Source of the DNA: a virus
Length of the DNA stretch: 64,000 nt
Direction: 5' to 3' (one strand)
Virus record (IMG/VR): IMGVR_UViG_3300030438_000078
Coordinates: 92,994-156,993 of that record
The notes below the pieces were generated by a model that did not search any database, was not told the origin of the DNA, and saw only the letters and a list, made by a program, of their open reading frames with translations. Shown piece after piece: positions 5,916 through 48,485 of the stretch. Numbering within the stretch: position 1 is the first letter of the stretch; the number at the start of each line of letters is the position of its first letter. A program made the position numbers and the translations under genes.

Positions 5916-6532
5916 ACTAGTTTAATCGCATCAGTGTTAACATTACCTATATCTCCTTTTTGTAATGCTTCTAACTCTAACCATTTGTGATCAATTACAA
6001 AATTAGCTAGAGTACAGCATATATAATTTGTGTTTTCTTTAGCCCAATTTATAAGTCCTATAATATATTCATGAGTTTCAGGATTCCACTTAATAGTTTT
6101 ACCATAATATCTATAGAAATCTTCCAAAGTATCAAACTTCTTGGAAACACTTCTCAGACCTGTAGTACTACCATTAATAATTCCAAACATAGGATATGTT
6201 TCGAATAACTCTTTACCCATGTCAAAAGATGACCTATAAAAGTTTTTAATAAAATTCTTGTTAAAGGTTATATCTTCTGGAACGAATCTTTGACCTTTAT
6301 CAGGAATTTTATATTCTTTAGTAATAACTCCTTTATCTTGCAAAGATATTAGAAGTTCTCTAATTCCACCACGACACTCTGTTGGTAAATTAAAATACTC
6401 GTTAATATAATTAGAATTATCACCATCTTGGATAAGAAGTATAATAGAAACAAACAGTAATTCATTAGAATTTATTTTATATTTTTCTAAGAATAAAACC
6501 TGTTCGTTTATTGTCATTTCACAATTTTTCAC
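5912..6532 (-). CDS. hypothetical protein
   Basis: 206-aa ORF, 4-nt overlap with helicase gene. Confidence 0.4.
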   Translation of the reverse strand: MKNCEMTINEQVLFLEKYKINSNELLFVSIILLIQDGDNSNYINEYFNLPTECRGGIRELLISLQDKGVITKEYKIPDKGQRFVPEDITFNKNFIKNFYRSSFDMGKELFETYPMFGIINGSTTGLRSVSKKFDTLEDFYRYYGKTIKWNPETHEYIIGLINWAKENTNYICCTLANFVIDHKWLELEALQKGDIGNVNTDAIKLV

Positions 6533-6620
6533 GCGTATAAATTAATAATTTCCACAACTAATCTATACACTAAGTTTTTAATACTTGTTAAAGCTGGATA
6601 ACTTAGTTACGTGAATTTTC

Positions 6621-6791
6621 TCAATCTTCTGATTCTTCCTTTTCAGTAGCTGTTTCTAACAGGATTCTATAATCTTCTTTTACTTTTTTAAGTTCTTTAG
6701 TTAAAGACTCTACCTTCTTATTAAGTAAATTAGCTTTCTTTTCTAATTCTCTTTTCATTTTATTATACTCTTGTCTGCTATAATATTCCAT
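6621..6791 (-). CDS. small coiled-coil protein (57 aa)
   Basis: ATG at 6791, TGA at 6621; K/E-rich heptad-like sequence; below the 60-aa cutoff of the ORF track, fills a gap on the coding strand. Confidence 0.3.
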   Translation of the reverse strand: MEYYSRQEYNKMKRELEKKANLLNKKVESLTKELKKVKEDYRILLETATEKEESED

Positions 6792-6793
6792 AG

Positions 6794-7990
6794 TTAAAAA
6801 CGATAAGTAAAATTTTGAACTTTCTTTTTATAAGGTTCCCATGGTTCTCCATTAAGAAGTTTTATTAGATTATCGACATCAATAGTAACATAACTACTGT
6901 TTTGATGTGACTTTCTAAACCATTCACATTCTACTGTTCCCTCTATTACTAGAGTAAACATTTCTGCATATTTGGAACCCTCCTTTCTAATTACTCTACC
7001 AGTTGATTGAGTAGCTTTAATAGGGCTAGAATCTACACCAAGTACAATACCTATTGATAATCCAGGACAATCAAAACCTTCAATAGCTAATTTACAACTA
7101 TTAATTACTCCTTTATTAATGGTATTAAACTCATTTTGAGTAATTCGATTTTTCTTTTTCCCTTCTTTACCAGTATATACATAACTTGGTATATCTTCCT
7201 TTCGGAGCATAGAATCTAAAGATTCTGCTATTGAAGTATTAGCAGAAAAAGTAATAATTTTCTTATCTAATCTATTCTTTATAATCTCAAAAGCCACATC
7301 TAGCTTTTTAGGATGATAATGAATAAATTTCTTTCTGCTTTGTAGACTTCTCATAAAAGCAGTAGCATGATAAGTAATTTGTTTAAATACTTCTTTTCTT
7401 TTAGATTCGTCTTTCTCATTTTTACATAATTCATCTCTATATTTGGCTCTATTTATGAAACCATGTTTTCCTAACATACCCATAACTAATTCCCAATCAA
7501 AGTTAAAATATTCAAAATGAGAAACAAATTCTTTATTATATTCTTTATAGGTATCCAAATCATCTACGGTTATGATAACTTGATATTCTGTAAAATCAGA
7601 AACCCAACCGTTTAGTTTAGCCACCTCTAAAGTAATAGTATCTACTACTGGACAATATTGATTTATTAAAACATGTTTACCATCTAGTCTTTCTATGGTT
7701 GCAGTTAAACCTAATATCAATTTATACTGAACTATTTTAAATATAGAAGAGAATGTGTCTGCTGCAAAACGATGAATTTCGTCTAATACCAATAGGTCAC
7801 ATTTTATTTTGGTTTTTGCGGCTGTATTTATAATAGCCACTTCTACATTTAGTCCTAATCCATTACTATCAATATGGTCTAACCACTGAAGTCTTAAAAG
7901 GTCAGTAGGAACTACTACCAGTACTCTTATACTAGGATACTTAGTTAGTAACTTTTTAATGGCGTTTAATGCCACACGAGTTTTTCCATA
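6794..7990 (-). CDS. SF2 (DEAH-type) helicase, exon 2
   Basis: Begins 'YGKTRVALNAI' (end of Walker A), motif II 'LVLDEIHR', motif III 'GLTAT', motif VI 'QSTGRVIR'; reading frame is open upstream to 7990 with no start codon. Confidence 0.65.
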   Translation of the reverse strand, partial: YGKTRVALNAIKKLLTKYPSIRVLVVVPTDLLRLQWLDHIDSNGLGLNVEVAIINTAAKTKIKCDLLVLDEIHRFAADTFSSIFKIVQYKLILGLTATIERLDGKHVLINQYCPVVDTITLEVAKLNGWVSDFTEYQVIITVDDLDTYKEYNKEFVSHFEYFNFDWELVMGMLGKHGFINRAKYRDELCKNEKDESKRKEVFKQITYHATAFMRSLQSRKKFIHYHPKKLDVAFEIIKNRLDKKIITFSANTSIAESLDSMLRKEDIPSYVYTGKEGKKKNRITQNEFNTINKGVINSCKLAIEGFDCPGLSIGIVLGVDSSPIKATQSTGRVIRKEGSKYAEMFTLVIEGTVECEWFRKSHQNSSYVTIDVDNLIKLLNGEPWEPYKKKVQNFTYRF

Positions 7991-9168
7991 CAGTTTTGTT
8001 ATCGTTAAGCTTTTTATCTTAACTTCTATAACTTTACGCTATAGCTCAGCGTACCTTTTTGTCCACTTATTTCAGTTGGGACAGAAACCACTCTTGGGTC
8101 TATTTTATTCTCTAATATAGAGGTTCAAGACCTACGCGTTACGATGGTATAGATTTTTTAGTTTCTATACTTATCTCGGGATTAACATACATCTAATCAT
8201 CACGACTCAAGCTACAGTCTTCCTCGATATTGGTTTCTAATAATTCAGTAAATTCCTCTACTGAACGGCTACCTTTTTTAAAGAAATTATATAACTTATA
8301 TTTTCTATCTAAGTAGATAGTACTATTATTGTATATATAATTAATAAACTTAATACTATTTTCTTTATTCCAATCTAAATAAAAGATTTCTTTAGAATGT
8401 CTTTTATCATGTTTTAATGAAGCTATTGTGTCAGAATATTTAATAATATTATTTAACATATCCATAGTTCCTAATACTATTACTCTAGGTGTTACTGTAT
8501 GTATATGTACATATCTAGTAATACAACCATCTCCATCAAAATAACCACGAATGAAATGCTTAACTAAATTTTCTGAAATATTTGGAAACTTTAGAGTTAA
8601 AGATTTATTAGGAGTACATCCCAGATTATTTAGAGTAGTCCAAAAATGTTTATTTGCAATACTAAATCTACATCTATTATTATCTATCAGTAGATTCTTA
8701 TTGTATCCAATAAACTTTTTAAACTTCTCTAAATGCTTTAAATCTTTTATTCCTAAAGATAATTCAAAACCATAGATACTTTTTATCCCTTCTCTAATAG
8801 GAGAACTATTAATAGTTCCGTCTGCAAATATAAAGCCTATCCAATAAGCTTTCTCTTCTGTATCTATAGAATCAAAAATATGTTCATTGAATTTAGAACA
8901 GTTTTGTTTATTAATTATCTCAATTCCTAACTCTTTAAAATGCTTAGAAAGAGTTCTTCTATCTACTTTTTCCCGATTTCCCATTTGAGTTAATGAGATA
9001 TCAGTTGTTTGAAATTCAAATGCTAATTTTTCCCAGTCTAAATTTTTCATAACTTGTACATTTTGATTATATACAATGTTACTTAAATTTTAAACCAGTA
9101 CAAAAAAAAATAATTTCTTAAGGCTGCTCTTGAACTATTATTTAATTATAGCTCAAAGAAAAATTGTA
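7991..9168 (-). mobile_element. self-splicing (group-I-like) intron with internal homing-endonuclease ORF interrupting the helicase P-loop
   Basis: Exon 1 ends ...ACG GGT (T G) at 9169 and exon 2 starts TAT GGA AAA ACT (Y G K T) at 7990, restoring an intact 'TGYGKT' Walker A; upstream exon ends in U and intron ends in G as in group I introns; in-frame TAA 9 codons into the intron; GC-richer structured segment 8035-8125. Confidence 0.55.
8193..9050 (-). CDS. LAGLIDADG-family homing endonuclease (intron-encoded)
   Basis: Two LAGLIDADG-like motifs: 'YWIGFIFADGT' and 'RGYFDGDGCI'; 285 aa; located wholly inside the insertion. Confidence 0.7.
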   Translation of the reverse strand: MKNLDWEKLAFEFQTTDISLTQMGNREKVDRRTLSKHFKELGIEIINKQNCSKFNEHIFDSIDTEEKAYWIGFIFADGTINSSPIREGIKSIYGFELSLGIKDLKHLEKFKKFIGYNKNLLIDNNRCRFSIANKHFWTTLNNLGCTPNKSLTLKFPNISENLVKHFIRGYFDGDGCITRYVHIHTVTPRVIVLGTMDMLNNIIKYSDTIASLKHDKRHSKEIFYLDWNKENSIKFINYIYNNSTIYLDRKYKLYNFFKKGSRSVEEFTELLETNIEEDCSLSRDD

Positions 9169-11043: not shown

Positions 11044-11245
11044 TAATATCTTTTATCTCTGACTCTATTGAATCATTAGATATATTAATACTATCTCTAA
11101 ATAATGAATCTTGTTTAATCTCTTCAATATGAGGAGGGTTTACCTCCTCAATATTTACAGGTTTCTCAGTATTTAGAATTAATATCAATATAACTAATAC
11201 GCATACTACTAGACCAGAAATAAGTATTTTTTCACTTCTAGTCAT
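10910..11245 (-). CDS. putative membrane protein
   Basis: TM segment 'ILISGLVVCVLVILILIL'; overlaps 10660..11043 by 134 nt, so one of the two may be mis-called. Confidence 0.3.
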   Translation of the reverse strand: MTRSEKILISGLVVCVLVILILILNTEKPVNIEEVNPPHIEEIKQDSLFRDSINISNDSIESEIKDINDNYEKEVSIIMSSSDSANLLFFTKYIEDYNNRRAIEDSKSDIR

Positions 11246-11801
11246 TATAGTTCTTCAACTTATTAGCTAAATCAGTATATTTATTGAGATCAGTTCCTTC
11301 TAAAGCCATATTGACTATATTTCTCTCATTTTCATTTAGAGAATTATATTCTTCTTGAGTTTTCTTTTTCTTTTCATATCTAGCCTTAGAATCATTATAT
11401 CCTTTAATAATTCTTTCTGGATTCTCTTTAACAAACTTACTTTCTTGTTTAAGAAGAGCTTTAATCAAAGTTTTGTTAACAACTCCTTTAACAGAAGAAC
11501 AGAGAACAGGATTGGAAAGATTATTCAAAGCTTTACGATAAGCAATTTCTCTACCTTTATTTTCATCGAATTTATCTTCTGGATTACAAACAGAATAACC
11601 AATAGATACCATTCTTTCTACATAATGTCTTTTATTGTATGATGCATATTCATCATATACATACGAAATAGCTAATTCTAGCTCATCATAATTTTCTGGA
11701 GCACTACTAATAGCGCATACAACAAATTTATGTTCTACACCTTTGAAATCAACAAATGAATCAATCAAGTATTCAACTACGTTACTTTTCATAATCATCA
11801 A
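11238..11801 (-). CDS. hypothetical protein
   Basis: 187-aa ORF. Confidence 0.45.
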   Translation of the reverse strand: MMIMKSNVVEYLIDSFVDFKGVEHKFVVCAISSAPENYDELELAISYVYDEYASYNKRHYVERMVSIGYSVCNPEDKFDENKGREIAYRKALNNLSNPVLCSSVKGVVNKTLIKALLKQESKFVKENPERIIKGYNDSKARYEKKKKTQEEYNSLNENERNIVNMALEGTDLNKYTDLANKLKNYND

Positions 11802-12722: not shown

Positions 12723-13077
12723 TCTCTACTCCTTTAATTAATGATTCAATATAATCAGCTCTAGCTTGTATAGCATCATATAAATCCTTGATACTTTCTG
12801 CATTTTCTATATTTTCATAAGTTTCGTCATATATACAAGGGCATACCATCGTGTAGCTTTCTCCTTGTCCGTGTATACAATCTGGACAAAATCCATTAAT
12901 AGGTTTACATAAATGACAAGTTCTAACACTTCCAAAGCCTGTTATTTCATGTATAACACCTTCAAAATATGCTCCATCTTCTGTATATAATTTGTTATAT
13001 ACCTCTTTTAACTGCTCAATAGTAATACTTTTATACAATTCTACTAATTCTTTAGCAGATTCTAAATTTTTTACCAT
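12712..13077 (-). CDS. hypothetical Cys-rich protein (possible zinc-binding)
   Basis: 121 aa with CHLCK..CPDC..CPC cysteine cluster. Confidence 0.4.
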   Translation of the reverse strand: MVKNLESAKELVELYKSITIEQLKEVYNKLYTEDGAYFEGVIHEITGFGSVRTCHLCKPINGFCPDCIHGQGESYTMVCPCIYDETYENIENAESIKDLYDAIQARADYIESLIKGVENGN

Positions 13078-14060
13078 ACTTTTTCTACAATTAATTTGTC
13101 GGATTTAATGATTTTATCCCAATCCTTGTAGGAATTAGAAATAATAACTTTATCAAACTTATCAAGAACTTTTCTTAATCCTTGTTCATTAACAGCATGA
13201 CAAACAATCAAAGTAAATACTCCGTCTGGATATTTCTCTTTAAGTACTTCTAATTCTCCCAAGAAAGTTCCACCACCATCACACAAATCATCAACAAATA
13301 CAAAATTCTTAGAAGTTAAATTCGCATAATCAATTTCAAAAGATTCAATCTTACCTGTTTTTAAATTACGTTTCTTATTAAAAGTAATCATGCCTCTTTT
13401 TTTATAGAATCCATTATTTAAAAATCCTTGATATCTTTCTCTAGAACCTTCATCTGGATATATTATAGTAGAGTCTTCTGGGAAGTCGCAGTCCAATGTA
13501 CATAAGAAATAATTTCCATAGGACCCCATTAAATCTACTGTTTTATCTGAATGAGGTTCAAGAACTTCCACATCATAGCAACTAAAATTCTTAAGTATAT
13601 TACTTACAATTTTTAGAGAAAAAGGTCTATTAAAATCCATTACTCTATCCATTCTCATAGACATTAAATAAGTAATATATAAGAACCATTTTACTTCATG
13701 TCTGCTAAGAATATCATTAACTTGCATTAGAATAAATAATTCATCTGCATTAGTTACTCTACAAATAACTTTTATTTCTTGTTTTCTATCAATTTCTGAA
13801 TCAATAGATATTTGTTTTTCTCCATCAGGAAAAGAGAAAATAGTGTAAGAGGTTCCTTCTCTAGTTAATTGTGCTGCATTAACTTCTAGAAAGTCTAACT
13901 TATTTGCCTCACATAATTGCTTTATAGTAAAACTTTTTCCTGATCCACTTTCTCCAGTTAATATAAAGTGTGGTCTAAGTCTGCACTGACTGTTTTTAAA
14001 TATTTGAAATATTCTATTTATTTCTTTTATTAAAGTTTCTTGACCTATTATTTTATTCAT
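13071..14060 (-). CDS. two-domain protein: N-terminal P-loop NTPase + C-terminal phosphoribosyltransferase-like domain
   Basis: Walker A 'LTGESGSGKSF' at N-terminus; C-terminal 'FVFVDDLCDGGGTF' matches the type-I PRTase PRPP-binding motif (hydrophobic run, DD, xxxGGT). Confidence 0.45.
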   Translation of the reverse strand: MNKIIGQETLIKEINRIFQIFKNSQCRLRPHFILTGESGSGKSFTIKQLCEANKLDFLEVNAAQLTREGTSYTIFSFPDGEKQISIDSEIDRKQEIKVICRVTNADELFILMQVNDILSRHEVKWFLYITYLMSMRMDRVMDFNRPFSLKIVSNILKNFSCYDVEVLEPHSDKTVDLMGSYGNYFLCTLDCDFPEDSTIIYPDEGSRERYQGFLNNGFYKKRGMITFNKKRNLKTGKIESFEIDYANLTSKNFVFVDDLCDGGGTFLGELEVLKEKYPDGVFTLIVCHAVNEQGLRKVLDKFDKVIISNSYKDWDKIIKSDKLIVEKVW

Positions 14061-14207
14061 TTTCCAAATAAAATTTTATAAGAACGTTTTTTATTTATTC
14101 CACTGCCTTTATTATACCATAGTATTACTTTATCACCAGCAAAATCTATACTAGGTTCATAATGAATATAGATTACTAATACAATTAAAAATATAAATAT
14201 TTCCATA

Positions 14208-14465
14208 CTAAATAACGTGTAAATCGGTAAAAGGAATATCATTCCCTATATAGGAATATATTCCAAACCAACTAAATATTACCCATAAAGACTCTTGAAT
14301 TTCTTGACCCTCACAATAATCTACTGGATAAATTCTTTCTATAAGCTCTTTATAACAGAGAGTGTATTTCTCTAAATTTTCTTTTCTCTTTCTCTGATTT
14401 TCAGTATTTAAAATATCTGCACCAGATTTAGTTAGAGTTATAGAAACAGTTTCATTTAATTCCAT
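14208..14465 (-). CDS. hypothetical protein
   Basis: 85-aa ORF. Confidence 0.3.
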   Translation of the reverse strand: MELNETVSITLTKSGADILNTENQRKRKENLEKYTLCYKELIERIYPVDYCEGQEIQESLWVIFSWFGIYSYIGNDIPFTDLHVI

Positions 14466-14577
14466 GTTTATTTCGTTTTGATAGAACCAGGTCTTGTTGT
14501 AGCAGCTTGAAATGTTTTAGACTGTTTTTCCCACCATTGAATTTTCTGTTCTAGATACTGCTTTCTTTTTTTGTACT

Positions 14578-15294
14578 TCATAATAAATTTTGTTTAAGAA
14601 TGTTTAATACTTCTGATTTAGGAACATTGTATTTAATCCATATGATTTTTATATTGTTATTATCACAATATTCCTAAATTAACTAATCTCTTTTCTGCTA
14701 TTTTTCTAGAGAAAATGGAATTAATCTATTAGAACATTTAAAATAATCACATTCTTCATAATGCTGTTTTCCGTTATATTCTATATATACATCTCCTACT
14801 TTAAAATCAATAAAATATTTTTTATCATCAATTTTAAGGTAAAAGTTATGGATATATGAAATATTATTTTCCTTTAACCAATTTTCTATAAAAATTTCTC
14901 CTAAAGATTTAGGTTTACATAAAGGACATCCTGACTATCTTAAAAAATCTCCAGGTCTTATTTCAAAAAATCCATGAATAGGACATCCTATAGTTACTTT
15001 AGTATCATTATTTTTATATTCTACCTTGGAATAATCAAAATTTTTATTAGGAAATCTATCTTTACATTTTTGTATAAAAAGTTCATTATTTAATTTTCTA
15101 TTAGTTATTCCATTTTTAATACCTTTCCATGATCCATTTTTCAAACGACTTGCTGAAACTGTTACTTCTCCTAATACAGGATGTATTACTATTACAGAAC
15201 AACGCCATCCTGTATATACAGTTTTACTAAAGTCACAGCTAGGATATAATTTCTATACTCGTTCTAAAAATTCACTCTATGTTAATTTTCTCAT
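14578..15294 (-). CDS. endonuclease-like protein with six in-frame TAG codons (TAG-recoded gene, or pseudogene)
   Basis: Single frame of 239 codons from ATG 15294 to TGA 14578 whose only internal stops are six TAGs; the translation is protein-like throughout and contains 'FIDFKVGDVYIEYNGKQHY' (Vsr/DUF559-like endonuclease motif) and 'CPLCKP'. Confidence 0.5.
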
Positions 15295-15386
15295 AATAAT
15301 TTTCCTATTTAATTTATGACTACCATGCTTGTTTTGCTTGTAACCATTTAACTCTTTTACTGTACTTCATAATTTTTAAATTTTAA

Positions 15387-15788
15387 TTAATCCCAAAATG
15401 TTCTAAACCAATATTCTCTCATTTTACAATATAGATACCAAGCTTTTTCTTCTCTCAAAGTTGATTTACTAATATTTTCAAAACACTTTTCTGAGAGTTT
15501 ATCCTTTCTAAAGTATCTATACTTGTTTTTAGTATTAACATAGATAATACCTTGATCTATTTTCTCCCAATCAAAGTCTTTATCCATACTTATATCAAGT
15601 AAACGAAGTGTTAAATTGATTCTTTCGGCATCACGTATGTTGTCTACATGAAGACCTTTATTCTTGATATAATCCCCCATCTTTTTAAGAGCAGCTCTCT
15701 CCATGTCAAGAATAAAACCATAATCCCAAGGCTCAAATTTAACAGCAGCTTTTACTACTGATTTACATTTACATTTTCTAAGTTTCAT
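15387..15788 (-). CDS. hypothetical protein
   Basis: 133-aa ORF, 4-nt overlap with rnhA-like gene. Confidence 0.4.
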   Translation of the reverse strand: MKLRKCKCKSVVKAAVKFEPWDYGFILDMERAALKKMGDYIKNKGLHVDNIRDAERINLTLRLLDISMDKDFDWEKIDQGIIYVNTKNKYRYFRKDKLSEKCFENISKSTLREEKAWYLYCKMREYWFRTFWD

Positions 15789-16213
15789 ACTAATTGAGAT
15801 GCTTCATTAGCTAATTTGTCAGCTAGGTTATTATATTCGTTTCTATCATGTCCTTTTACCCATTCAAATCTTATGTCTGAACAGAATGAGGAAGTTTTTT
15901 CATAAACTTTATCATAAGCCTGCCATAAATTTACGTTAGCTTTTCTTTTCCAACCTTTAGTCGCACAACCTATAACATATTGAGAATCAGTATAAATAAT
16001 AACTGATTTAATAGGTCTGCTAACAGCATTTAAAGCTGTTATTACAGCTAATAGTTCACATTTATTATTTGTAGTATTTTCTATTTTTTTACTGAATGTA
16101 TGAACTTTTTCTCCATTTAAAAGAAATACTACACTAATTCCTCCAGTATTTCTTAATGGACTAAAAGCTCCATCAGTATAACATTCTAGAACTACTTCCG
16201 GTTTTCCTTTCAT
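15785..16213 (-). CDS. rnhA: ribonuclease H
   Basis: Canonical RNase HI residues: 'YTDGA' (D), 'NNKCELLAVITAL' (E), 'IYTDSQYV' (D), 'VKGH..N..ADKLA' (H, D); 142 aa. Confidence 0.85.
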   Translation of the reverse strand: MKGKPEVVLECYTDGAFSPLRNTGGISVVFLLNGEKVHTFSKKIENTTNNKCELLAVITALNAVSRPIKSVIIYTDSQYVIGCATKGWKRKANVNLWQAYDKVYEKTSSFCSDIRFEWVKGHDRNEYNNLADKLANEASQLV

Positions 16214-17182
16214 TCACTCCTATAAATTTTTCTAGAGCAGCCCTATAAAGGGTTGTTCTAGAGATAAATAGATTACTGTAAAGTGTCACAAACTGCTACA
16301 GTATCATTCATTACTGAATCCATTACTGTAGAATCATTTACTACCATAACTGAATCAACGTTACTTACTTCTTTATCTGAATTTGCAACATTTCCACAAG
16401 CTGACATAACAGCAATCATACTAAAGAGAAAAATAAATTTTTTCATTGTTAATAAAATTTTAAAAGTTAAACATCAAAATAAAAAAAGAGTGGTTACTGT
16501 ATCTGTGCTTCATAAGATACTTTCACCACTCCCTATTACCATAAAGGCTTGTACCGTTATTAGGTTGGTCAACCTCCCTCTTCATCTTGTTGAGAATTTG
16601 GGATAATAGTCACCAAGTTTAAAGATTACTTGTAACTGAAGCACTAAAAGTAGAGTAAGTTTCACCCCTTACTCAATCGTAACTACAACAGTCCTGTATT
16701 TCTACACTCCCGATGTAATATTCGCAATAATCGCAAAATAATTTCTTATAATTAATATTGATAGGATTCAAACCTACATTGTGTCTATAGCCACACTATA
16801 TGAGCTTTGTAACTTACAATACGACTTTACGTTTACCTTCAGTTACGAGATTAAAAGTCTCTTAGTTTTCATATGGCGTCTATTCAATTTCGCCACAATA
16901 TTTATAAGAAATTATTTTACGATTACGTAACTCCTTCAACACATGGTTGACGAGATATGTAGGAAGCTAACACGCAGACAAAAGCAAGAACCAAGGCAAA
17001 GACCCGATTATACTAGCAAAGACAAAGATAAAGACTAATTTGAGAAATATAACTTCTCATATTGTATAAAACTTTGTATAATCGGCGAATAATTTTTGGT
17101 TACAGATTATAAATCTGATAAAAATATGCTTTTATTTTAATCCATTTTAAATTTTGTTAGCCTCCTACAGAAAAACTTCTAA

Positions 17183-18094
17183 TTACTTAGAAGAATCGCA
17201 TTGTTTCTGAATTTCCTTAAATGTATCAAGGAGATTAGAAGGCAATACAATTTTTAGTTTAGAGATTCTTTCTCTTTCAGAAGTAACCCAGTTATTAAAG
17301 TCACTTCTAGCAACCCTCATAGCTGAATTATATTCATCATATTGTTTATTATATTCGTCTACTTTTCTTCTGAACTCTTGCTCTCGTTCCATACTGATTC
17401 TATTGACATCAGCTTGAATCTCAGCTTTCATAGCATTAAGTTCTTTCTCATAGGAACGATAAATTTCCTGAAGTTCAAAGAATAATTTCTCTACATCTTT
17501 ACTATCTACTGTAGGATAATAGTAATAAAGAATAAGATCTCTACCAGAACCTTCTTTGGTAATAGGACTATTCTCTATATTATGCATTTCTTTTCTAGCT
17601 TTAGAGAAAGCTCCTTTAGGGTGAATATATTTACCATATGTAGAAGCAAATGCTTCAAGTTTAAGATATTTATTTCTCTTGTTAATATCCCAAGAATTAA
17701 TAACATCTTCCTCTAAAACAGAAACTGCATATTCTGGATACTCTGGAGTACTTGGCACACCATATCCAGTATCTTTAATCCATTTCTCTAATGTTAGAGA
17801 TTTTAGACTAATTAACTGAGCATCTTTTTCTTTAATTGCTTCTCTTACCCAAGCACAGAAAGCATTCATCTTAGAAATTTGTTCCAAATTTTTCTTTACA
17901 GAATCTAGAGATTTCCATCCCTTAGACATAATCTTTTCAGGAGATTGAGAATCAATAGATGAAACACAAGTTTTATATAGTTTTATACTATTTAATGATT
18001 CTGTAATAGATTGAATCATTTCCTGTGCTACATTAGCATAATAGTTTGCAGAAGTTGAATTTAATCCTTCTGCTCCAAAATAAACATTATTCAT
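17183..18094 (-). CDS. hypothetical protein
   Basis: 303-aa ORF. Confidence 0.45.
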   Translation of the reverse strand: MNNVYFGAEGLNSTSANYYANVAQEMIQSITESLNSIKLYKTCVSSIDSQSPEKIMSKGWKSLDSVKKNLEQISKMNAFCAWVREAIKEKDAQLISLKSLTLEKWIKDTGYGVPSTPEYPEYAVSVLEEDVINSWDINKRNKYLKLEAFASTYGKYIHPKGAFSKARKEMHNIENSPITKEGSGRDLILYYYYPTVDSKDVEKLFFELQEIYRSYEKELNAMKAEIQADVNRISMEREQEFRRKVDEYNKQYDEYNSAMRVARSDFNNWVTSERERISKLKIVLPSNLLDTFKEIQKQCDSSK

Positions 18095-24304: not shown

Positions 24305-24461
24305 ATGTTACAAATTTTCTTTTTAATTGGTGAATATTTGCTAAAATGTCCACGACTAGGATTCTGTCACCTAATCACACCAGATAAGTTTTTGTATTGA
24401 CATTTACCTATACCTCGCCAAGGCTGGCTTCAACTTAAACTCGGAACAGATTTTTGTGGGT

Positions 24462-24535
24462 ATGGTAGGATTCGAACCTACTATCTTCTGCTTAACAGCA
24501 GTAGCTTATACCACTTAAGCTTCACTCCAATATCA
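24462..24535 (-). ncRNA. degenerate tRNA-like element (T-arm GTAGG-TTCGAAT-CCTAC, no matching 5' acceptor strand)
   Basis: Canonical T-arm and a D-arm-like hairpin (GCTTA-AGTGGTA-TAAGC) but the 5' partner of the 3' acceptor strand (CATACCC) is absent and no 7-nt anticodon loop can be formed. Confidence 0.3.
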
Positions 24536-28952: not shown

Positions 28953-29208
28953 TTTTCAATTTTCTTACTTTAATAATTCCAGTACCTCTACAGGTTCCAC
29001 AAGTCTCAGTATCACATAAGGCTCCAGGACCGAAAGTTAAAATACCAAGTATAACTCTGTCTCCAGTAGACATTTTTACAGTGCCCACACCATTACAATG
29101 TGGGCAATATTTTTCAATATATTCTACTTGTTCCACTTTCTGTATTGTACATGAATCATCACATGATACTAGAATACATACTAACAGAAATGACAAATAT
29201 TTAATCAT
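28945..29208 (-). CDS. small exported protein with DnaJ-type CxxCxGxG zinc-finger repeats
   Basis: Signal/lipobox-like 'LSFLLVCILVSC'; 'CPHCNGVG' and 'CGTCRGTG' repeats. Confidence 0.4.
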   Translation of the reverse strand: MIKYLSFLLVCILVSCDDSCTIQKVEQVEYIEKYCPHCNGVGTVKMSTGDRVILGILTFGPGALCDTETCGTCRGTGIIKVRKLKNE

Positions 29209-29210
29209 AA

Positions 29211-29579
29211 CTATTTCTTAATTTTTAATTGTTCTACAGGAATACCAAGTTTATCAGCAATTTCTTGCATAGTAAGTACTACTTCTTTAGATTTTTCCCA
29301 AAGTACTTTACCCCTACTTAATCCACCTAACTCTTCAGAAGTTAAATCATATATACAAATTATTTTATGGGAATAATATTTAATAAAATATTCAATAGCA
29401 CTCCAACTACTTTTATTATAACAAATCAGTCCTAATCTCCCATTTAAAAGAGGAAATACAACATAAGATAATTCTTTATCATTATCTTGAATTTCAATAA
29501 CCATTCCTGGTTTAATTTCTACTCCATTTATTACATATTTTGCCATAATATTTTTTCTTTTATAAGTAAAACCTTTCAA
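29211..29579 (-). CDS. hypothetical protein
   Basis: 122-aa ORF. Confidence 0.4.
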   Translation of the reverse strand: MKGFTYKRKNIMAKYVINGVEIKPGMVIEIQDNDKELSYVVFPLLNGRLGLICYNKSSWSAIEYFIKYYSHKIICIYDLTSEELGGLSRGKVLWEKSKEVVLTMQEIADKLGIPVEQLKIKK

Positions 29580-30319: not shown

Positions 30320-30326
30320 TAATAAG

Positions 30327-30398
30327 TTGCTCTAGGAGAGTACGATTCTCCAATTTCAGAACCAAAACCTGACGTGTTGCCGATTACACCATAGAGCA
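30327..30398 (-). tRNA. tRNA-Gln (anticodon UUG)
   Basis: Acceptor TGCTCTA/TAGAGCA, D-arm GTGT-AATCGGCA-ACAC, anticodon arm TCAGG-TTTTGGT-TCTGA, T-arm GGAGA-ATCGTAC-TCTCC; 72 nt. Confidence 0.7.
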
Positions 30399-34574: not shown

Positions 34575-34644
34575 TGTGTTATAGTGGATTCGAACCCACT
34601 ACTTTCTAACATAGTTTGATGTTCTACCATTGAACTAATAACAC
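34575..34644 (-). tRNA. tRNA-like gene, anticodon arm not resolvable by eye
   Basis: Acceptor GTGTTAT/ATAACAC, D-arm GTTC-AATGGTA-GAAC, T-loop GTTCGAAT; only ~20 nt between D- and T-arms so a canonical 17-nt anticodon arm does not fit. Confidence 0.4.
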
Positions 34645-34819: not shown

Positions 34820-35305
34820 TTAGAACAAATATTTAATATCTTCTCCAATTAATTCGATTGCTTTCTCCAAATCTTCTCTCGTGTTGAAATACACAACTCC
34901 AGGATATCTTGCTCCACTATGAGTTCCAACCTGAAGTTCATTTCCGTACATTCCTTTAATGAAATATTGGGTAGTAGGAACAAGACTCTTTGAATTGAAA
35001 TACTGTGCTATTGTAGACAGCTTATGAATAACAGACCATTTTCTGTCTTCACAATCTGGAACAACGTAATACTTAGGAGTAGTAAGTCGTACTTCAGAGT
35101 AAATCTGATTAAAATTAACATACTCCAATTCTTTCTTAGAATAAGTTTTCAATGCCAATTCTTTCAAAGTAGCGTTACCTGATTTATACCACTCTTTTGC
35201 TTCATTTAAGCTGATTGCAATGTTTCTTTTTTCTTCCATGTTTAAATATTTTTTATAAAATTTGACAAATTCTTCTGCTGGGATAATATTATAGTTATAT
35301 TTCAT
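34820..35305 (-). CDS. hypothetical protein, paralog family member 3
   Basis: 'LNEAKEWYKSGNATLKELALKTYSKKELE' and C-terminal 'YFNTREDLEKAIELIGED'. Confidence 0.45.
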   Translation of the reverse strand: MKYNYNIIPAEEFVKFYKKYLNMEEKRNIAISLNEAKEWYKSGNATLKELALKTYSKKELEYVNFNQIYSEVRLTTPKYYVVPDCEDRKWSVIHKLSTIAQYFNSKSLVPTTQYFIKGMYGNELQVGTHSGARYPGVVYFNTREDLEKAIELIGEDIKYLF

Positions 35306-35385
35306 GTAGAAGTTTTTAAAAGCAAATTTTCCTTCACTAATAAAATAACAAGTTTCTTCTTTATAAGAATCCCAATATGAATAAC

Positions 35386-35979
35386 CTATAAAACTCTTTC
35401 AGTAGACCATCTATAGCCTAATTTATCAGCTATTTCCAATACTTGGTTAGCTAATTTCTCAGTTGGGCACCAAGTATGAATATACTGTTTCAATTTCTTA
35501 TTCGCTTTTGGCAACATAGTAGATACTACTGGATGAACAGTCTTTGCTTTTAATCCACAAGTCTTTACAAGTTCTTTCAGCATTATGGAAAAAGCCAGCA
35601 CATTTTCATTCCAAGTAGGTTCCGCCCATTCTTGCAAAGTGAACATTGAATCTTTCGGTTTCTTTCACATCTTCATTCTTGATAATCATTTCAATTTGAT
35701 AAGCAAGTTCGTCTACTGAAACATTACCAAAGAAGCCAAATTTAGGAACATCACAGAATTTACAATGCATTGGACAGCCTTTCTGTGTAGATATAGTAGC
35801 AACCCATTTGTTGCGCAAATCTACTTTTGTATTAGCTACTCCATTAATTTCTTTGTCAATCCAAGAAAATTAGCTTTAATGTTATTTTCTTTTCCGTAGT
35901 CACCAACTGTGAGAAACTCAAGTTTGTTATTGGTGTCTACATAAATCTTACCCGTATGGGTTCTAACGATTTTAATCAT
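35386..35979 (-). pseudogene. radical-SAM-domain gene disrupted by at least two frameshifts
   Basis: Three consecutive ORF pieces in different frames (35819-35979, 35606-35818, 35386-35646); middle piece carries the radical-SAM Cx3Cx2C cluster 'GCPMHCKFCD'. Confidence 0.4.
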
Positions 35980-39424: not shown

Positions 39425-39632
39425 ATTGTTCAGTTTTAATTAGTTTTTCAAGTTCTTTTATTTCATTTTCTCTTTCTTTGATATATTGAGGATCAGGTTC
39501 TACTCCATAGAAAGTAGCTCTAGCTTTATATTGGAATATTTCAGCATACTTATCCGCAATTCTATCATGTATTCCCTTTAATTTTTCTACTGTCATAATC
39601 CAAAATATTTGTTGCTCCCCAGCAGGACTCAA
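39408..39632 (-). CDS. hypothetical protein
   Basis: 74-aa ORF; 5' end overlaps the tRNA-like gene at 39614-39694, so the true start may be internal. Confidence 0.3.
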   Translation of the reverse strand: MSPAGEQQIFWIMTVEKLKGIHDRIADKYAEIFQYKARATFYGVEPDPQYIKERENEIKELEKLIKTEQYEKKN

Positions 39633-39694
39633 ACCTGCGACCTACTCGGCACTAATTTCTATACCAAGTGCTCTATCAACTGAGCTATGGAGGA
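39614..39694 (-). tRNA. tRNA-like gene with enlarged (~14-nt) anticodon loop
   Basis: Canonical D-arm (GCTC-AGTTGATA-GAGC) and T-arm (GCAGG-TTTGAGT-CCTGC), acceptor TCCTCCA/TGGGGAG; anticodon stem CTTGG/CCGAG encloses 'TATAGAAATTAGTG' instead of 7 nt; 81 nt. Confidence 0.45.
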
Positions 39695-41231: not shown

Positions 41232-41486
41232 TCAGAGGATTTTTAAAAGTATCCCCACCGCTGTGGGGATTTTACAAATGTCCACCAAGAACAGACCTTC
41301 CTGTGCCACTATACTTTGAATTGTTTCACAACAACTACATAGTCTCTGGGCATACCCATTATGGTCTTGTAACAATTTAAATATAACATGACAACTTTTT
41401 TGTTTCACAACAATTTTATAAGATGGGTTCTCTATTCTGGAATCGAACCAGATCTTCCCACACTTGTGGTAGTGCCCATACACCAT
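41232..41486 (-). CDS. hypothetical Cys-containing protein
   Basis: 84-aa ORF. Confidence 0.35.
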   Translation of the reverse strand: MVYGHYHKCGKIWFDSRIENPSYKIVVKQKSCHVIFKLLQDHNGYAQRLCSCCETIQSIVAQEGLFLVDICKIPTAVGILLKIL

Positions 41487-41493
41487 TAGAGAA
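41428..41493 (-). ncRNA. truncated tRNA-like element without an anticodon loop
   Basis: Acceptor TTCTCTA/TAGAGAA, T-arm TCTGG-TTCGATT-CCAGA, short D-hairpin, and a CCAC-AAGT-GTGG tetraloop hairpin where the anticodon arm should be; ~66 nt. Confidence 0.3.
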
Positions 41494-43807: not shown

Positions 43808-43881
43808 TGGGGTATGGTCGTAATTGGTTAACGGGTCTGACTCTAAATCAGAAATTCTGGGTTCGAGTCCCAGTACCCCGA
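43808..43881 (+). tRNA. amber suppressor tRNA (anticodon CUA, reads UAG)
   Basis: Acceptor TGGGGTA/TACCCCG, D-loop TAATTGGTTAA, anticodon arm TCTGA-CTCTAAA-TCAGA with CTA at 43843-43845, variable AATT, T-arm CTGGG-TTCGAGT-CCCAG; 74 nt. Confidence 0.8.
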
Positions 43882-43900
43882 CAATTAAAACATTAATAAT

Positions 43901-44910: not shown

Positions 44911-46464
44911 TTACAGAATATTCTTGCCAAAATAGACAGGAACAGTTTTATCATCCATTAGTAATCTTTTCTTTTGTTTTAAAGGGGTATATAACTTTTT
45001 AGTAATTCCACTAGGGGAGTACTCAAACTAATTATATTCAGAATTCAATAATGCATCTTTAAGCTCCTATGAAGTTACAGTTGTCTGATTTCCTTGATAA
45101 ATATCTTCATAATCGGGTCTTGTATCATAAAATCCCTTCTTATTTAAAGGTCTACTACTTACACCCATAGTATAGGGATTCATTCCAATTATTTCTGCTT
45201 GCTATTCTGGAAGTAACTATACCTTACCTCTAAATCCACTAGAAGTGTTACCAAAATTTAAATGACTTCTTCCCATTTGTGTAACATCTATTTCACCAGG
45301 AAAACCTCTATAATCAGTAGCCTTTCTAACCCCAAAAGTCTTTGTAGGAAATTCATAAAGTACTTTTATTCCGATAGGTTCTGACGTACCTAATCCAGAA
45401 AATTCTTCCCAAGGAGTAGTGTGGGATATAAATAGTTTCTCACCCTCTATATTAGTACTAGGTAATTTACTTGATCTTGCCATTCTATAATAATTATCCC
45501 CATTTCTAGTAGATAAAAAATTAGACCATTCAGAATTTCTAAAAGCCCGTGTAGCTTTATCTATATTCTTAGGAGAATTATCTAAATTTCTACTTAATAT
45601 TTTAGCTCTAGCCCATTTATTACCAGCTTTAGCTAATCCATATTCAGCTACTCTACCTAATCCTTTAAATACAGGGTTTAAAGCAACTCCTTCTACATAT
45701 AACTAACCTATAGGGTCTGTACCGCTCATACTTATATTAGTAGTAGAGGTTTGTTCTTTACCATTAGCATCTTTCCATCTTACTACTTCAGAATTTGGTT
45801 GCTAACTTCTAGCATTAGCAACCTGTAATCTATTATATGCTTGAGGGTCTTCTTTCTTCATCTATTCTACTACTTGAGAATATTGAGGACCTTTATATTC
45901 TAATTTACCCCAAGCTGTTTGTTTCTTAGGAATTAATATCCCACCCTTTTTAAACTCTTTATTTTTATTTCCTTGCTCTATATACTACTTTAAGAAATTT
46001 CTCTGATTCTCATTTATCGGTATATAAACAGTATTCATTCCTTTATGTAATCTTTTTGTAAGTTCTGGTCGTAGGTCTAATTTATATTTATGTTCTGCTG
46101 GGTAATAAATAGAATCTCCTTTTATCATTGGTATCCCATTTAATTCCTCTAATACAAAATCTTGAACATCTCCAGGAGTAGTAAACAAAAAAGAATTTAG
46201 TTTTTTATTAAAGGTCTTTTCTAAAGCGCATCTAGTTGCATCACTACAGTTATTAGTAACTAGATTATAATCTTTATGTTTTCCGCCTTTATCTACTGTG
46301 TAGGGTCTATATCTATCATCCTTTGACCCAGTTATAGTTAAACTACTATGTCCAGTAAGTGGATATCTACTAACAAAAGGATAATAAGTATTTAGAACTG
46401 CATATTTAGAAGATTCATCTAATAACTCGTTTCCTTCCTAATATTTTGGTATTAATTTACTCAT
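44911..46464 (-). CDS. TAG-recoded protein (517 codons) with papain-like thiol-peptidase-type 'NNC' motif (PPPDE/LRAT-like)
   Basis: One frame from ATG 46464 to TAA 44911 contains about 10 in-frame TAGs and no TAA/TGA; it fuses ORF-track pieces 45985..46188 and 45217..45483; 'HKDYNLVTNNCSDATRCALEKTF' resembles the Cys box of PPPDE/NlpC-P60-like peptidases. Confidence 0.5.
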
Positions 46465-47258: not shown

Positions 47259-47469
47259 ATTTCCAAATTCCTGTTACACTATCTATACCTAATAGTCCCA
47301 TGCAACACCATAGAACTGTATCTATCATTAATGGAGCTTGTATAACTTCAACTGTACAATATACCAATACTAAAAGACATATTATCCAACCAGTTAATCC
47401 GCAAACTCTCTTAGAAGATACTCCTGATTGAGAAATTACTACTTCCTTCAAAAATTGTATAAATCTCAT
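47218..47469 (-). CDS. membrane protein (holin/spanin-like)
   Basis: 83 aa, two TM helices, basic C-terminus; ATG overlaps TGA of upstream gene (ATGA). Confidence 0.4.
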   Translation of the reverse strand: MRFIQFLKEVVISQSGVSSKRVCGLTGWIICLLVLVYCTVEVIQAPLMIDTVLWCCMGLLGIDSVTGIWKFGNKDGNNKKLDK

Positions 47470-48485
47470 CTCTTAAAATATTGATTTATAACATCAGAGT
47501 AATTATCCACCTACTAAAAAGCATCATTTAATCCTCCGTTAATATATATATTATACATATCCTATATGGATTTAGAACTATTTAATCTACTTTTAAATTT
47601 ATTAGGCATTTTGTAGTAAGCATATAACATTCTATCTTCTGAACCTGGATTATTCTTAAAGAAAGCATGAACTGAATTTCCATACTTTTCTATTAATAGT
47701 TTTTTAGCATCGTTCAATTTCATATTAATAATCTCAGCTGCATCATTCAAAGATAAATTATCTTTTCCCCATACTTTCATTTTATTATCAAACGGTTTTT
47801 TATAAGTTAATCCAGTAATATTTAATCTTTGTTTGACGTCGTCTAAATTATCCAATCCAAAGTTTCCTAGTTTTTTATAAGATGTATTTCCAGGATTTTT
47901 AGTGGGATTTCGGGCAATTACAACACTATCTGGATCGACTGTTAATTTAGAATTAAGCATATTAGTAGCATAGCCTTCGTTTAACAGTACATTTAATAAT
48001 CCCCTCTTATGGGCAACATTAGAGAGTACTCCATTTAACTATTTTCTGTTTTTATCTAAAAATGAATATTTCCAATTTTTATCTATACCATTTTTATCTG
48101 TACCCCATTTAGTATTTACAATTACTTTATAATTAGGAGAGGTAACTTCTCCACCATCTTCATGTTTTTTAATTAAACCATAAGTTCCTTTCTTTAATCT
48201 TTTAATTGTAATCCATCCATTATCTAATATTGACCTATGTCCATCTGGCTTATGAATCTTCGAACCTTCCTCATGTTTCCATTTAGCAGCATTTCTAGCA
48301 AAGTTAGCCCTCTTCTTTTGTAATGGAGTAGTCTTAGGATTTTTTAATACAGCTCTTGCATGCTCCTATACACTTCTTCCTGCCTTTTTAGCAGAAGCTG
48401 TAAACTTTCCTCTGTTCTTCTTTTTAATATGAATACCAGAACCTTTCTTATATATCTAGCATCCAATAAATTCTAAATTGTTCAT
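47466..48485 (-). CDS. TAG-recoded basic protein (340 codons), candidate lysis/virion protein
   Basis: ATG 48485 to TGA 47466 with in-frame TAGs at 48456, 48366, 48039, 47562, 47514 and 47511; extends ORF-track piece 47562..47960 in both directions; very K/R-rich N-terminal third. Confidence 0.45.

Follow-up and report, generated by a model that had tools for sequence, protein, structure and literature searches.

A TAG-Recoded Homing-Endonuclease-Like Gene Within the Early Gene Block of a crAss-Like Phage

Results

The Locus and Its Surroundings

The window analyzed here is a 64,000-nucleotide stretch of viral DNA with a GC content of 29.7%. A minus-strand block of about 60 open reading frames (ORFs) occupies positions 96-42954, and a plus-strand block, whose ORFs contain 2-30 in-frame TAG codons apiece, begins at about 51 kb; these are called the early and the late block below. 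The early block contains a homing-endonuclease-like gene of 239 codons, with its ATG at 15294 and its TGA at 14578. Its neighbors are RNase H, a gene termed X, a 37-aa gene (s37), a 102-aa gene and a PRPP-synthetase-like gene (Table 1), and the neighborhood is a replication and nucleotide-metabolism module. Gene X and the 102-aa gene gave no informative match in PHROG and Pfam. A match search showed that the DNA flanking the endonuclease gene resembles crAss-like Bacteroides phages. The TGA of the endonuclease gene overlaps the ATG of s37 (ATGA), and the gene has a GC content of 23.8% (GC3 11%) compared with 30.1% for the minus-strand block.

Table 1. Features of the endonuclease locus and of other parts of the window discussed in the text.
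Feature	Position	Strand	Details
Homing-endonuclease-like gene	14578..15294	-	Free-standing; 238 aa with TAG as Gln
In-frame TAG codons 6, 14, 120	15279-15277, 15255-15253, 14937-14935	-
In-frame TAG codons 199, 204, 207	14700-14698, 14685-14683, 14676-14674	-
Treble-clef zinc finger	14917..14985	-	C104, H107, C123, C126 (CPIHG...GCPLC); DUF723/DUF4379/CapR type
Vsr-like (EDxHD-type) nuclease domain	14581..14913	-	Residues ~128-238
Predicted catalytic E133, D163, E172	14898-14896, 14808-14806, 14781-14779	-
Predicted catalytic N174, H178, D203	14775-14773, 14763-14761, 14688-14686	-
Gene X	15387..15788	-	133 aa; left border of slot
37-aa gene, 5'-end remnant	15314..15370	-	MKYSKRVKWLQAKQAW then TAG-TCA-TAA; between X and endonuclease
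37-aa gene (s37), intact	14468..14581	-	MKYKKRKQYLEQKIQWWEKQSKTFQAATTRPGSIKTK; right border of slot
RNase H	15785-16213		Neighbor of gene X and endonuclease
ORFs with a single TAG 2-28 codons before an in-frame TAA/TGA	1563-2594, 8139-9050, 11232-11798	-
ORFs with a single TAG 2-28 codons before an in-frame TAA/TGA	14157-14465, 29205-29546, 35302-35646	-
tRNA, anticodon CUA (amber suppressor)	43808..43882	+	Gln-like

Distribution of TAG Codons

Translation reproduced the 239-codon frame that had been described in a sequence-only reading of this DNA. The frame has exactly six internal stops, all of them TAG. It lacks TAA and TGA far beyond chance, since the other two minus-strand frames contain 16 and 37 TAA/TGA codons over the same interval. 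That reading had considered an all-TAG set of lesions to be statistically odd, and a decay model based on single-base nonsense paths out of the gene's own codons bears this out. The probability that a random nonsense mutation gives TAG is 0.14-0.18, and six TAGs out of six have P ~1e-5 to 4e-5 under decay.

TAG accounts for 6/10 of all Gln codons (CAA, CAG and TAG) in the endonuclease gene and for 134/241 in the late block. For 59 other early-block ORFs the share is 0/311, a zero that hinges on trimming at end-proximal TAGs (six ORFs cut at a TAG near the 3' end and two at a TAG in the first four codons, leaving 10,613 codons); without trimming, about eight such TAGs would join the 311 CAA/CAG codons, a share far under the 6/10 of the endonuclease gene. 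By Fisher test, the TAG share of the endonuclease gene differs from that of the early block (p = 1.4e-10) and does not differ from that of the late block (p = 1.0).

The TAG near the 3' end of six early-block ORFs, including 14157-14465, a close downstream neighbor of the endonuclease gene, is most likely the genuine terminator, followed by a backup stop. Early in infection these ORFs probably still end at TAG, and an active suppressor would give them short C-terminal extensions up to the backup stop. The one TAG in the first four codons of two early-block ORFs probably precedes the true start. TAGs spread through the body of an ORF are found in only two cases in the block, the endonuclease gene and ORF 35686-35979. 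This minus-strand ORF has 97 codons and three in-frame TAGs; its first 46 residues match phrog_24834 (function unknown), and the remainder does not look protein-like. Possible readings of the ORF are a gene remnant and a short gene that ends at its first TAG. The claims that all surrounding early genes are TAG-free and that a single gene of the block is recoded come out nearly right. The former holds for the 59 trimmed ORFs but fails for ORF 35686-35979 with its three body TAGs, and the same small ORF qualifies the latter.

TAG as Glutamine and the Suppressor tRNA

The endonuclease translated with TAG as Gln was used as a query and yielded 193 homologues. In an alignment of 23 homologues, the closest relatives have Gln at each of the six TAG positions. 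Three of the six fall on strongly conserved Gln residues in the motifs DFLRQ(S/T)GCP, E.QQ.RD, and L(V/I)QEYC. Related loci carry the designations L001 and upward, and among the codons of the window gene and its relatives in L002, L003, and L006, TAG swaps with CAA/CAG at conserved Gln columns. In the codon alignment of these four family members, column 121 reads TAG/TAG/CAA/CAG and column 211 reads TAG/TAG/CAA/TAG. The invariant Gln of NGxQHY is encoded by CAG/CAA/CAA/TAG, the TAG being that of L006. TAG occurs in 13 columns among the four members, and 1/13 is common to all four. These comparisons indicate that TAG in the endonuclease gene is read as Gln.

The tRNA with anticodon CUA and the phage tRNA-Gln(UUG) at 30326-30398 have in common U1, the D-arm, the variable region, and A73. 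No tRNA gene but that for tRNA(CUA) lies on the plus strand; all others found by ARAGORN or Rfam are on the minus strand, within the early block. Its solitary position fits separate transcriptional control of the suppressor. ARAGORN also listed a peculiar 'tRNA-???' at 41424-41493 (-), its anticodon being just two bases long; Rfam did not confirm it. Three minus-strand tRNA-like genes (34575-34644, 24457-24529, and 39615-39694) were found by Rfam only and are absent from the ARAGORN list. The endonuclease gene has the properties of a code-15 gene, namely TAG at positions where homologues have Gln, a genome-encoded tRNA(CUA), and a frame free of any other stop.

Integrity and Selection

With TAG counted as Gln, a comparison of the window gene with its L002 relative (92% identical) gives a dN/dS of 0.154, and four flanking genes have values of 0.03-0.23. 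The endonuclease aligns end to end without a frameshift, and its zinc-binding and predicted catalytic residues are all present. Judged from these comparisons, purifying selection acts on an intact gene. The sequence-only reading had named a frameshift, a TAA or TGA codon, and the lack of any homologue as grounds for giving up a recoded gene; the clean end-to-end alignment and the 193 homologues leave no trace of these.

A Zinc Finger Joined to a Vsr-Like Nuclease Domain

The protein matches phrog_559 at 2e-36, and further PHROGs of intron-encoded and homing nucleases, the E values ranging from 2e-36 to 3e-11. The treble-clef zinc finger (Table 1) is presumed to bind DNA, and its four ligands are invariant or nearly so in alignments A1 and A4. 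The Pfam match to DUF723 is weak in the window protein and clear in its homologues. A first zinc-finger copy at the N-terminus (residues ~20-60) is degenerate, and its Cys/His ligands are gone in the subfamily. Pfam gave no match to a NUMOD or helix-turn-helix N-terminus in the protein or its homologues, only to DUF723, DUF4379, and CapR-type families.

An AlphaFold2 model was made from a 66-sequence alignment for P0001, a protein 92% identical to the window protein, and has a mean pLDDT of 91.6. In this model the catalytic domain shows the Vsr-type variant of the restriction-endonuclease fold, to which it is assigned. Weak Foldseek matches are also to restriction-endonuclease-like folds. The EDxHD family is defined by the conserved Vsr catalytic residues E, D, x, H, and D, and includes phage Hef (PMC3239194). 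The catalytic residues are E170, D196, N208, H213, and D222 in I-Bth0305I and E25, D51, H64, H69, and D97 in Vsr (PMC3239194). Their predicted counterparts E133, D163, N174, H178, and D203 are invariant or at least 90% conserved in alignments of 23 and 66 homologues, and an additional E172 is invariant or nearly so in the endonuclease family. The match to EDxHD residues is one of order, Vsr-like spacing, and secondary-structure position, with no significant sequence alignment to a PDB entry. A profile search of PDB sequences with the endonuclease gave nothing at E<=5, so that the likeness to I-Bth0305I is one of fold only. The isolated C-terminal 110 residues matched no nuclease family in Pfam. 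The H and the last D are spaced 25 residues apart, in agreement with Vsr; in I-Bth0305I the distance is 9 residues. In contrast to I-Bth0305I, which has a NUMOD/helix-turn-helix module and is intron-encoded, the window protein has an N-terminal treble-clef zinc finger and a free-standing gene, and the two show no detectable sequence similarity. We therefore file the protein as an architectural relative of the EDxHD family rather than a proven member, with cleavage as a predicted activity.

Two other identities were considered. GIY-YIG was rejected because there is no GIY-YIG match in Pfam or PHROG and the fold is Vsr-like. HNH (beta-beta-alpha-metal) was rejected because there is no Pfam HNH match and the nuclease domain is Vsr-like in the model. 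The sequence-only reading had guessed at a DUF559/Vsr-like or a GIY-YIG fold; the modeled fold favors the former and the searches disfavor the latter. The label 'HNH endonuclease', which is attached to phrog_559 and, for this family, to RefSeq phage records such as NC_019401.1, NC_041872.1, and NC_047767.1, is probably a misnomer, possibly prompted by the Cys/His zinc finger. A family labelled 'DUF723', 'hypothetical', or 'HNH endonuclease' can now be assigned to a predicted Vsr-like fold with a zinc-finger module.

A Variable Insertion Slot Beside Gene X

The endonuclease gene lies in a slot bordered by gene X and s37. The remnant between X and the endonuclease gene is also present in L002 and comprises 16 codons of the 5' end of a 37-aa gene, the homology ending at codon 17. 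It is closer to the L001/L088 allele of that gene than to the intact downstream copy, and we read it as a putative insertion or recombination scar. The slot contains an OmpA-like gene in L001, the endonuclease gene and an OmpA-like gene in L088, and the endonuclease gene alone in the window and L002. The OmpA-like gene (10342-11358 in L001 and 10725-11741 in L088) encodes a 338-aa protein with a signal peptide and OMP_b-brl and OmpA domains, an outer-membrane protein or lipoprotein that resembles moron cargo carried within the replication module. The 3' end of gene X is seemingly disrupted in L001 and L088.

A homologue of X lies directly upstream of the endonuclease gene in six backbones, represented by the window/L002, L003, L006, L087, L088, and L089. 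The idea of a different insertion site in each phage was dropped once these homologues were found. In L001 and L090-L093, gene X is present but the endonuclease is not. Only four loci came out of an IMG/VR search with gene X, too few for an endonuclease occupancy rate. The endonucleases of the six backbones are 50-58% identical, and their adjacency to X could reflect long vertical co-inheritance rather than repeated homing.

At E<=1, Rfam showed no group I or group II intron or other RNA in 13800-16300; over the window as a whole its matches were confined to tRNAs. The endonuclease gene is free-standing, as there is no detectable intron RNA. Genes X and s37 on either side are complete ORFs, and the gene is not classed as intron-encoded. 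The wider family counts over 514 relatives in IMG/VR, several of them often sharing a genome; among deposited phages, 293 genomes carry it, one with as many as seven copies. Patchiness, the remnant, low GC, multiple copies, and the decayed copies of L043 and L088 are, at the level of sequence, what would be expected for a free-standing homing endonuclease beside its target gene.

Recurrence in Related Phages

Family members whose in-frame stops, 3-10 of them, are all TAG are found in L002, L003, L006, L007, L039 (two copies), L087, L088, and L089, and most or all of their neighbors are without TAG. In the closest subfamily (>=45% identity) the gene is TAG-bearing in 7/7 loci examined, and nearly all of the more distant family members, from standard-code phages, have no in-frame stop. 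The pattern is thus not peculiar to the window gene, as the description of one isolated gene had implied; it recurs in relatives and has a published precedent (bioRxiv 10.1101/2021.08.26.457843).

A family member at 9998-10741 of L078 has three in-frame TGAs. Each is aligned to Trp, and they include the nearly invariant W of E(N/D)WL; 13/15 other ORFs of that block are TGA-free. By its alignment, this gene appears to be the TGA-to-Trp counterpart of the window gene. GIY-YIG/NUMOD endonucleases also form TAG islands, at 16065-16994 of L003, 3277-3885 of L006, and 13291-14298 of L007. The one in L006 sits between NrdD and an NrdG-like gene. In L003 a helicase gene (15475-17996) is split into DEAD/ResIII and Helicase_C halves by the NUMOD-type endonuclease, which has two TAGs and a GIY-YIG-like N-terminal motif, with no significant Pfam GIY-YIG match. 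The interruption is due to the endonuclease gene itself, or possibly to an intron.

Discussion

A Probable Suppressor-Dependent Endonuclease

We propose, with a probability of roughly 0.8, that the gene encodes a functional free-standing homing endonuclease that is made in full length only with Gln-charged tRNA(CUA), so that its production is confined to the late phase and kept low. The sequence-only reading had offered a TAG-recoded gene as one of two options, and it is this option that gains from the Gln alignment, the codon interchange, the purifying selection, the predicted intact active site, the tRNA(CUA), and the TAG-free genes of the block.

On this proposal the endonuclease gene was inserted in the slot between X and s37 of a crAss-like phage recoded from TAG to Gln. 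It is probably co-transcribed with its TAG-free neighbors, given the same orientation, the closeness, and the lack of a terminator-like site between X and the endonuclease gene. In a host that reads TAG as stop, translation would end at codon 6, with five residues made. Read-through of all six TAGs, and with it the 238-aa nuclease, would come only when Gln-charged tRNA(CUA) has been produced. As six read-throughs are needed, the yield would rise steeply with the suppressor level, and production would be limited to the late, code-switched phase and to a low level. The best indirect evidence that TAG goes undecoded during part of the infection is its complete avoidance by the neighbors. We infer the co-transcription, the timing of the suppressor, the cleavage activity, and the target. 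A terminator scan of 14000-16300 found one weak terminator-like site, which is within gene X. A sigma-70 promoter scan of the same region found 22 promoter-like sites compared with 14.8 +/- 4.5 in shuffled sequences, which is uninformative in an AT-rich Bacteroidota phage.

In an adaptive version of the proposal, the TAGs would be a timer that holds a toxic nuclease to the phase with many genome copies. The main competitor is that the TAGs are tolerated and have no timing function, and we give this somewhat less than even odds. The gene would be functional and TAG read as Gln; C-to-T pressure would turn CAG/CAA into TAG, selection would purge TAG from genes needed before the code switch, and a dispensable selfish gene would drift to the TAG frequency of late genes. 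The TAG share of 0.60 in the gene compared with 0.56 in the late block (Fisher p = 1.0), the GC3 of just 11%, and TAG positions that vary among relatives so that one column in 13 is common to all four are in keeping with such drift. There is no sign that the TAGs were positively selected as a timer, since their share is equal to that of late genes and not above it, and relaxed constraint explains the same data. Against drift as the whole account, the pattern is found in three endonuclease types, several backbones, and two codes, and the intron endonuclease family of Borges et al. statistically favors the recoded stop. Late-only translation of endonucleases has, moreover, been selected by independent means in T4 (PMC2988022). 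The physiological outcome is the same either way, with no full-length protein made without the suppressor, and translation is suppressor-dependent whether the TAGs are an adaptive timer for a toxic nuclease or are tolerated.

The gene could also be a recent import that carries its TAGs as baggage from a recoded phage or a late region and is unadapted to the early block. Its GC is below that of its surroundings, it lies by an insertion scar in a variable slot, and dS between the window and L002 is 0.27 for the endonuclease gene and 0.36-0.57 for its flanks. We nevertheless regard a recent arrival as improbable. The subfamily follows X directly in six diverged backbones, at 50-58% identity and with TAG positions of its own in each, which argues for long residence in TAG-free early modules.

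Similarly low odds attach to a domesticated Vsr-like nuclease that acts late with gene X in repair, recombination, host DNA degradation, or phage exclusion. Repair enzymes also use the Vsr fold, the adjacency of X and endonuclease is kept across diverged phages, and the purifying selection matches that on the neighbors. However, X occurs without the endonuclease in five loci (L001 and L090-L093), the family is multi-copy and patchy with decayed copies in L043 and L088, and free-standing endonucleases are expected to stay beside the gene that they target (PMC2988022).

A recent pseudogene, in which the six TAGs would be inactivating nonsense mutations and which the sequence-only reading had kept as its alternative, is rejected as very improbable: the standard code does break the frame six times and homing endonuclease genes often decay, as in the family copies of L043 (6 TAA, 2 TAG, and 1 TGA) and L088 (nuclease motifs lost by frameshift), but six TAGs out of six are expected under decay only with the P of ~1e-5 to 4e-5 given above, all six align with Gln and are swapped with CAA/CAG in relatives, dN/dS is 0.15, the frame is unshifted with every predicted catalytic and zinc-binding residue kept, and nine further family copies in other phages are TAG-only as well.

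Relation to Known Systems

The suppressor-dependent reading has its closest precedent in the TGA-recoded Agate phages, where a group I intron endonuclease in an early gene favors the recoded stop (Borges, bioRxiv 10.1101/2021.08.26.457843). Borges et al. proposed that recoded stops block endonuclease production until late infection (bioRxiv 10.1101/2021.08.26.457843). The Agate endonuclease and the window gene are alike in being homing endonucleases with recoded stops among standard-code early genes. They differ in that Agate phages recode TGA to Trp and the endonuclease is that of an intron, whereas the window gene has TAG to Gln, belongs to a crAss-like phage, is free-standing, and encodes a Vsr-like/zinc-finger protein. 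The use of recoded stops is significantly preferential in Agate and equals that of late genes in the window. Beyond the Agate case, the pattern seen here is also present in GIY-YIG endonucleases and in a TGA version of the window family.

Block-wise TAG-to-Gln recoding of crAss-like late genes is established (Borges; Yutin PMC7886860; Peters PMC9523058). The window shares with these phages a TAG-free replication module, a TAG-heavy structural module, and a tRNA(CUA), and departs from block-wise recoding in that its endonuclease gene is an exception inside a standard-code block. A literature search found no paper on a recoded endonuclease in crAss-like phages or in the window family; the principle is published.

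T4 offers a different route to a similar end. I-TevI/II/III, SegB, and Aeh1 MobE are present in early or middle polycistronic transcripts and are translated late only (PMC2988022). RNA hairpins hide the ribosome-binding site in T4, and the endonuclease-specific promoters are late, with none early (PMC2988022). Many free-standing endonucleases are promoter-less cassettes between conserved genes (PMC2988022). The T4 endonucleases and the window gene are alike in being embedded among early genes with a product proposed to be late only. In contrast to T4, the block proposed for the window would operate during elongation, with translation terminating at TAG, and a trans-acting suppressor tRNA would relieve it.

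The modest extension made here is that the recoded-island pattern is found in two endonuclease families and in both recoding types. It takes a one-line observation by Borges et al. on one TGA-recoded intron endonuclease to the free-standing endonucleases of TAG-recoded crAss-like phages. More tentatively, and with odds that we consider clearly against it, recoding could be a general leash or code lock on Vsr-like and GIY-YIG selfish nucleases in standard-code early modules under both codes. If so, these unrelated endonuclease families would be written systematically in the alternative code; none of their product would be made before the code switch, and its amount afterwards would depend on a steep threshold. 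Endonuclease lineages would then spread productively only among suppressor-matched phages, and mobile elements would be divided into separate pools by genetic code.

The appropriate annotation is that of an intact code-15 gene, rather than a pseudogene or six fragments. As a lone recoded gene amid a standard-code operon, it is a natural test case for the idea that the code switch times expression, under which the endonuclease product should appear only after the suppressor tRNA.

Further Observations on the Window and Related Loci

Two recoded genes outside the endonucleases, at 6090-7436 of L003 and 1426-3636 of L087, have 14 TAGs each in blocks that are mostly TAG-free, and so depart from the pattern of endonuclease islands. 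Neither gave an informative match in PHROG and Pfam, and the L087 protein contains an HEFGH zinc-protease-like motif.

Two recoded minus-strand ORFs lie between the two main blocks of the window, and both were without an informative match in PHROG and Pfam. ORF 44911-46464 (517 aa, 9 TAG) matched neither database. ORF 47466-48485 (339 aa, 6 TAG) had no Pfam match, and its sole PHROG match, to phrog_20603 (unknown function), is marginal (E 1.3e-4). Because these recoded ORFs are on the 'early' strand, strand alone is no guide to code use at 43-51 kb.

ORF 13071-14060 (-), of 329 aa, is fusion-like. Over residues 1-119 it matches the Walker-A N-terminus of an AAA-type protein, and over residues 65-313 ribose-phosphate pyrophosphokinase. 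The AAA part has a 659-aa gene of its own in L001 (7294-9273), where the match to the PRPP synthetase part is ~2 kb off (6294-7043). A deletion may have fused the two parts in the window phage.
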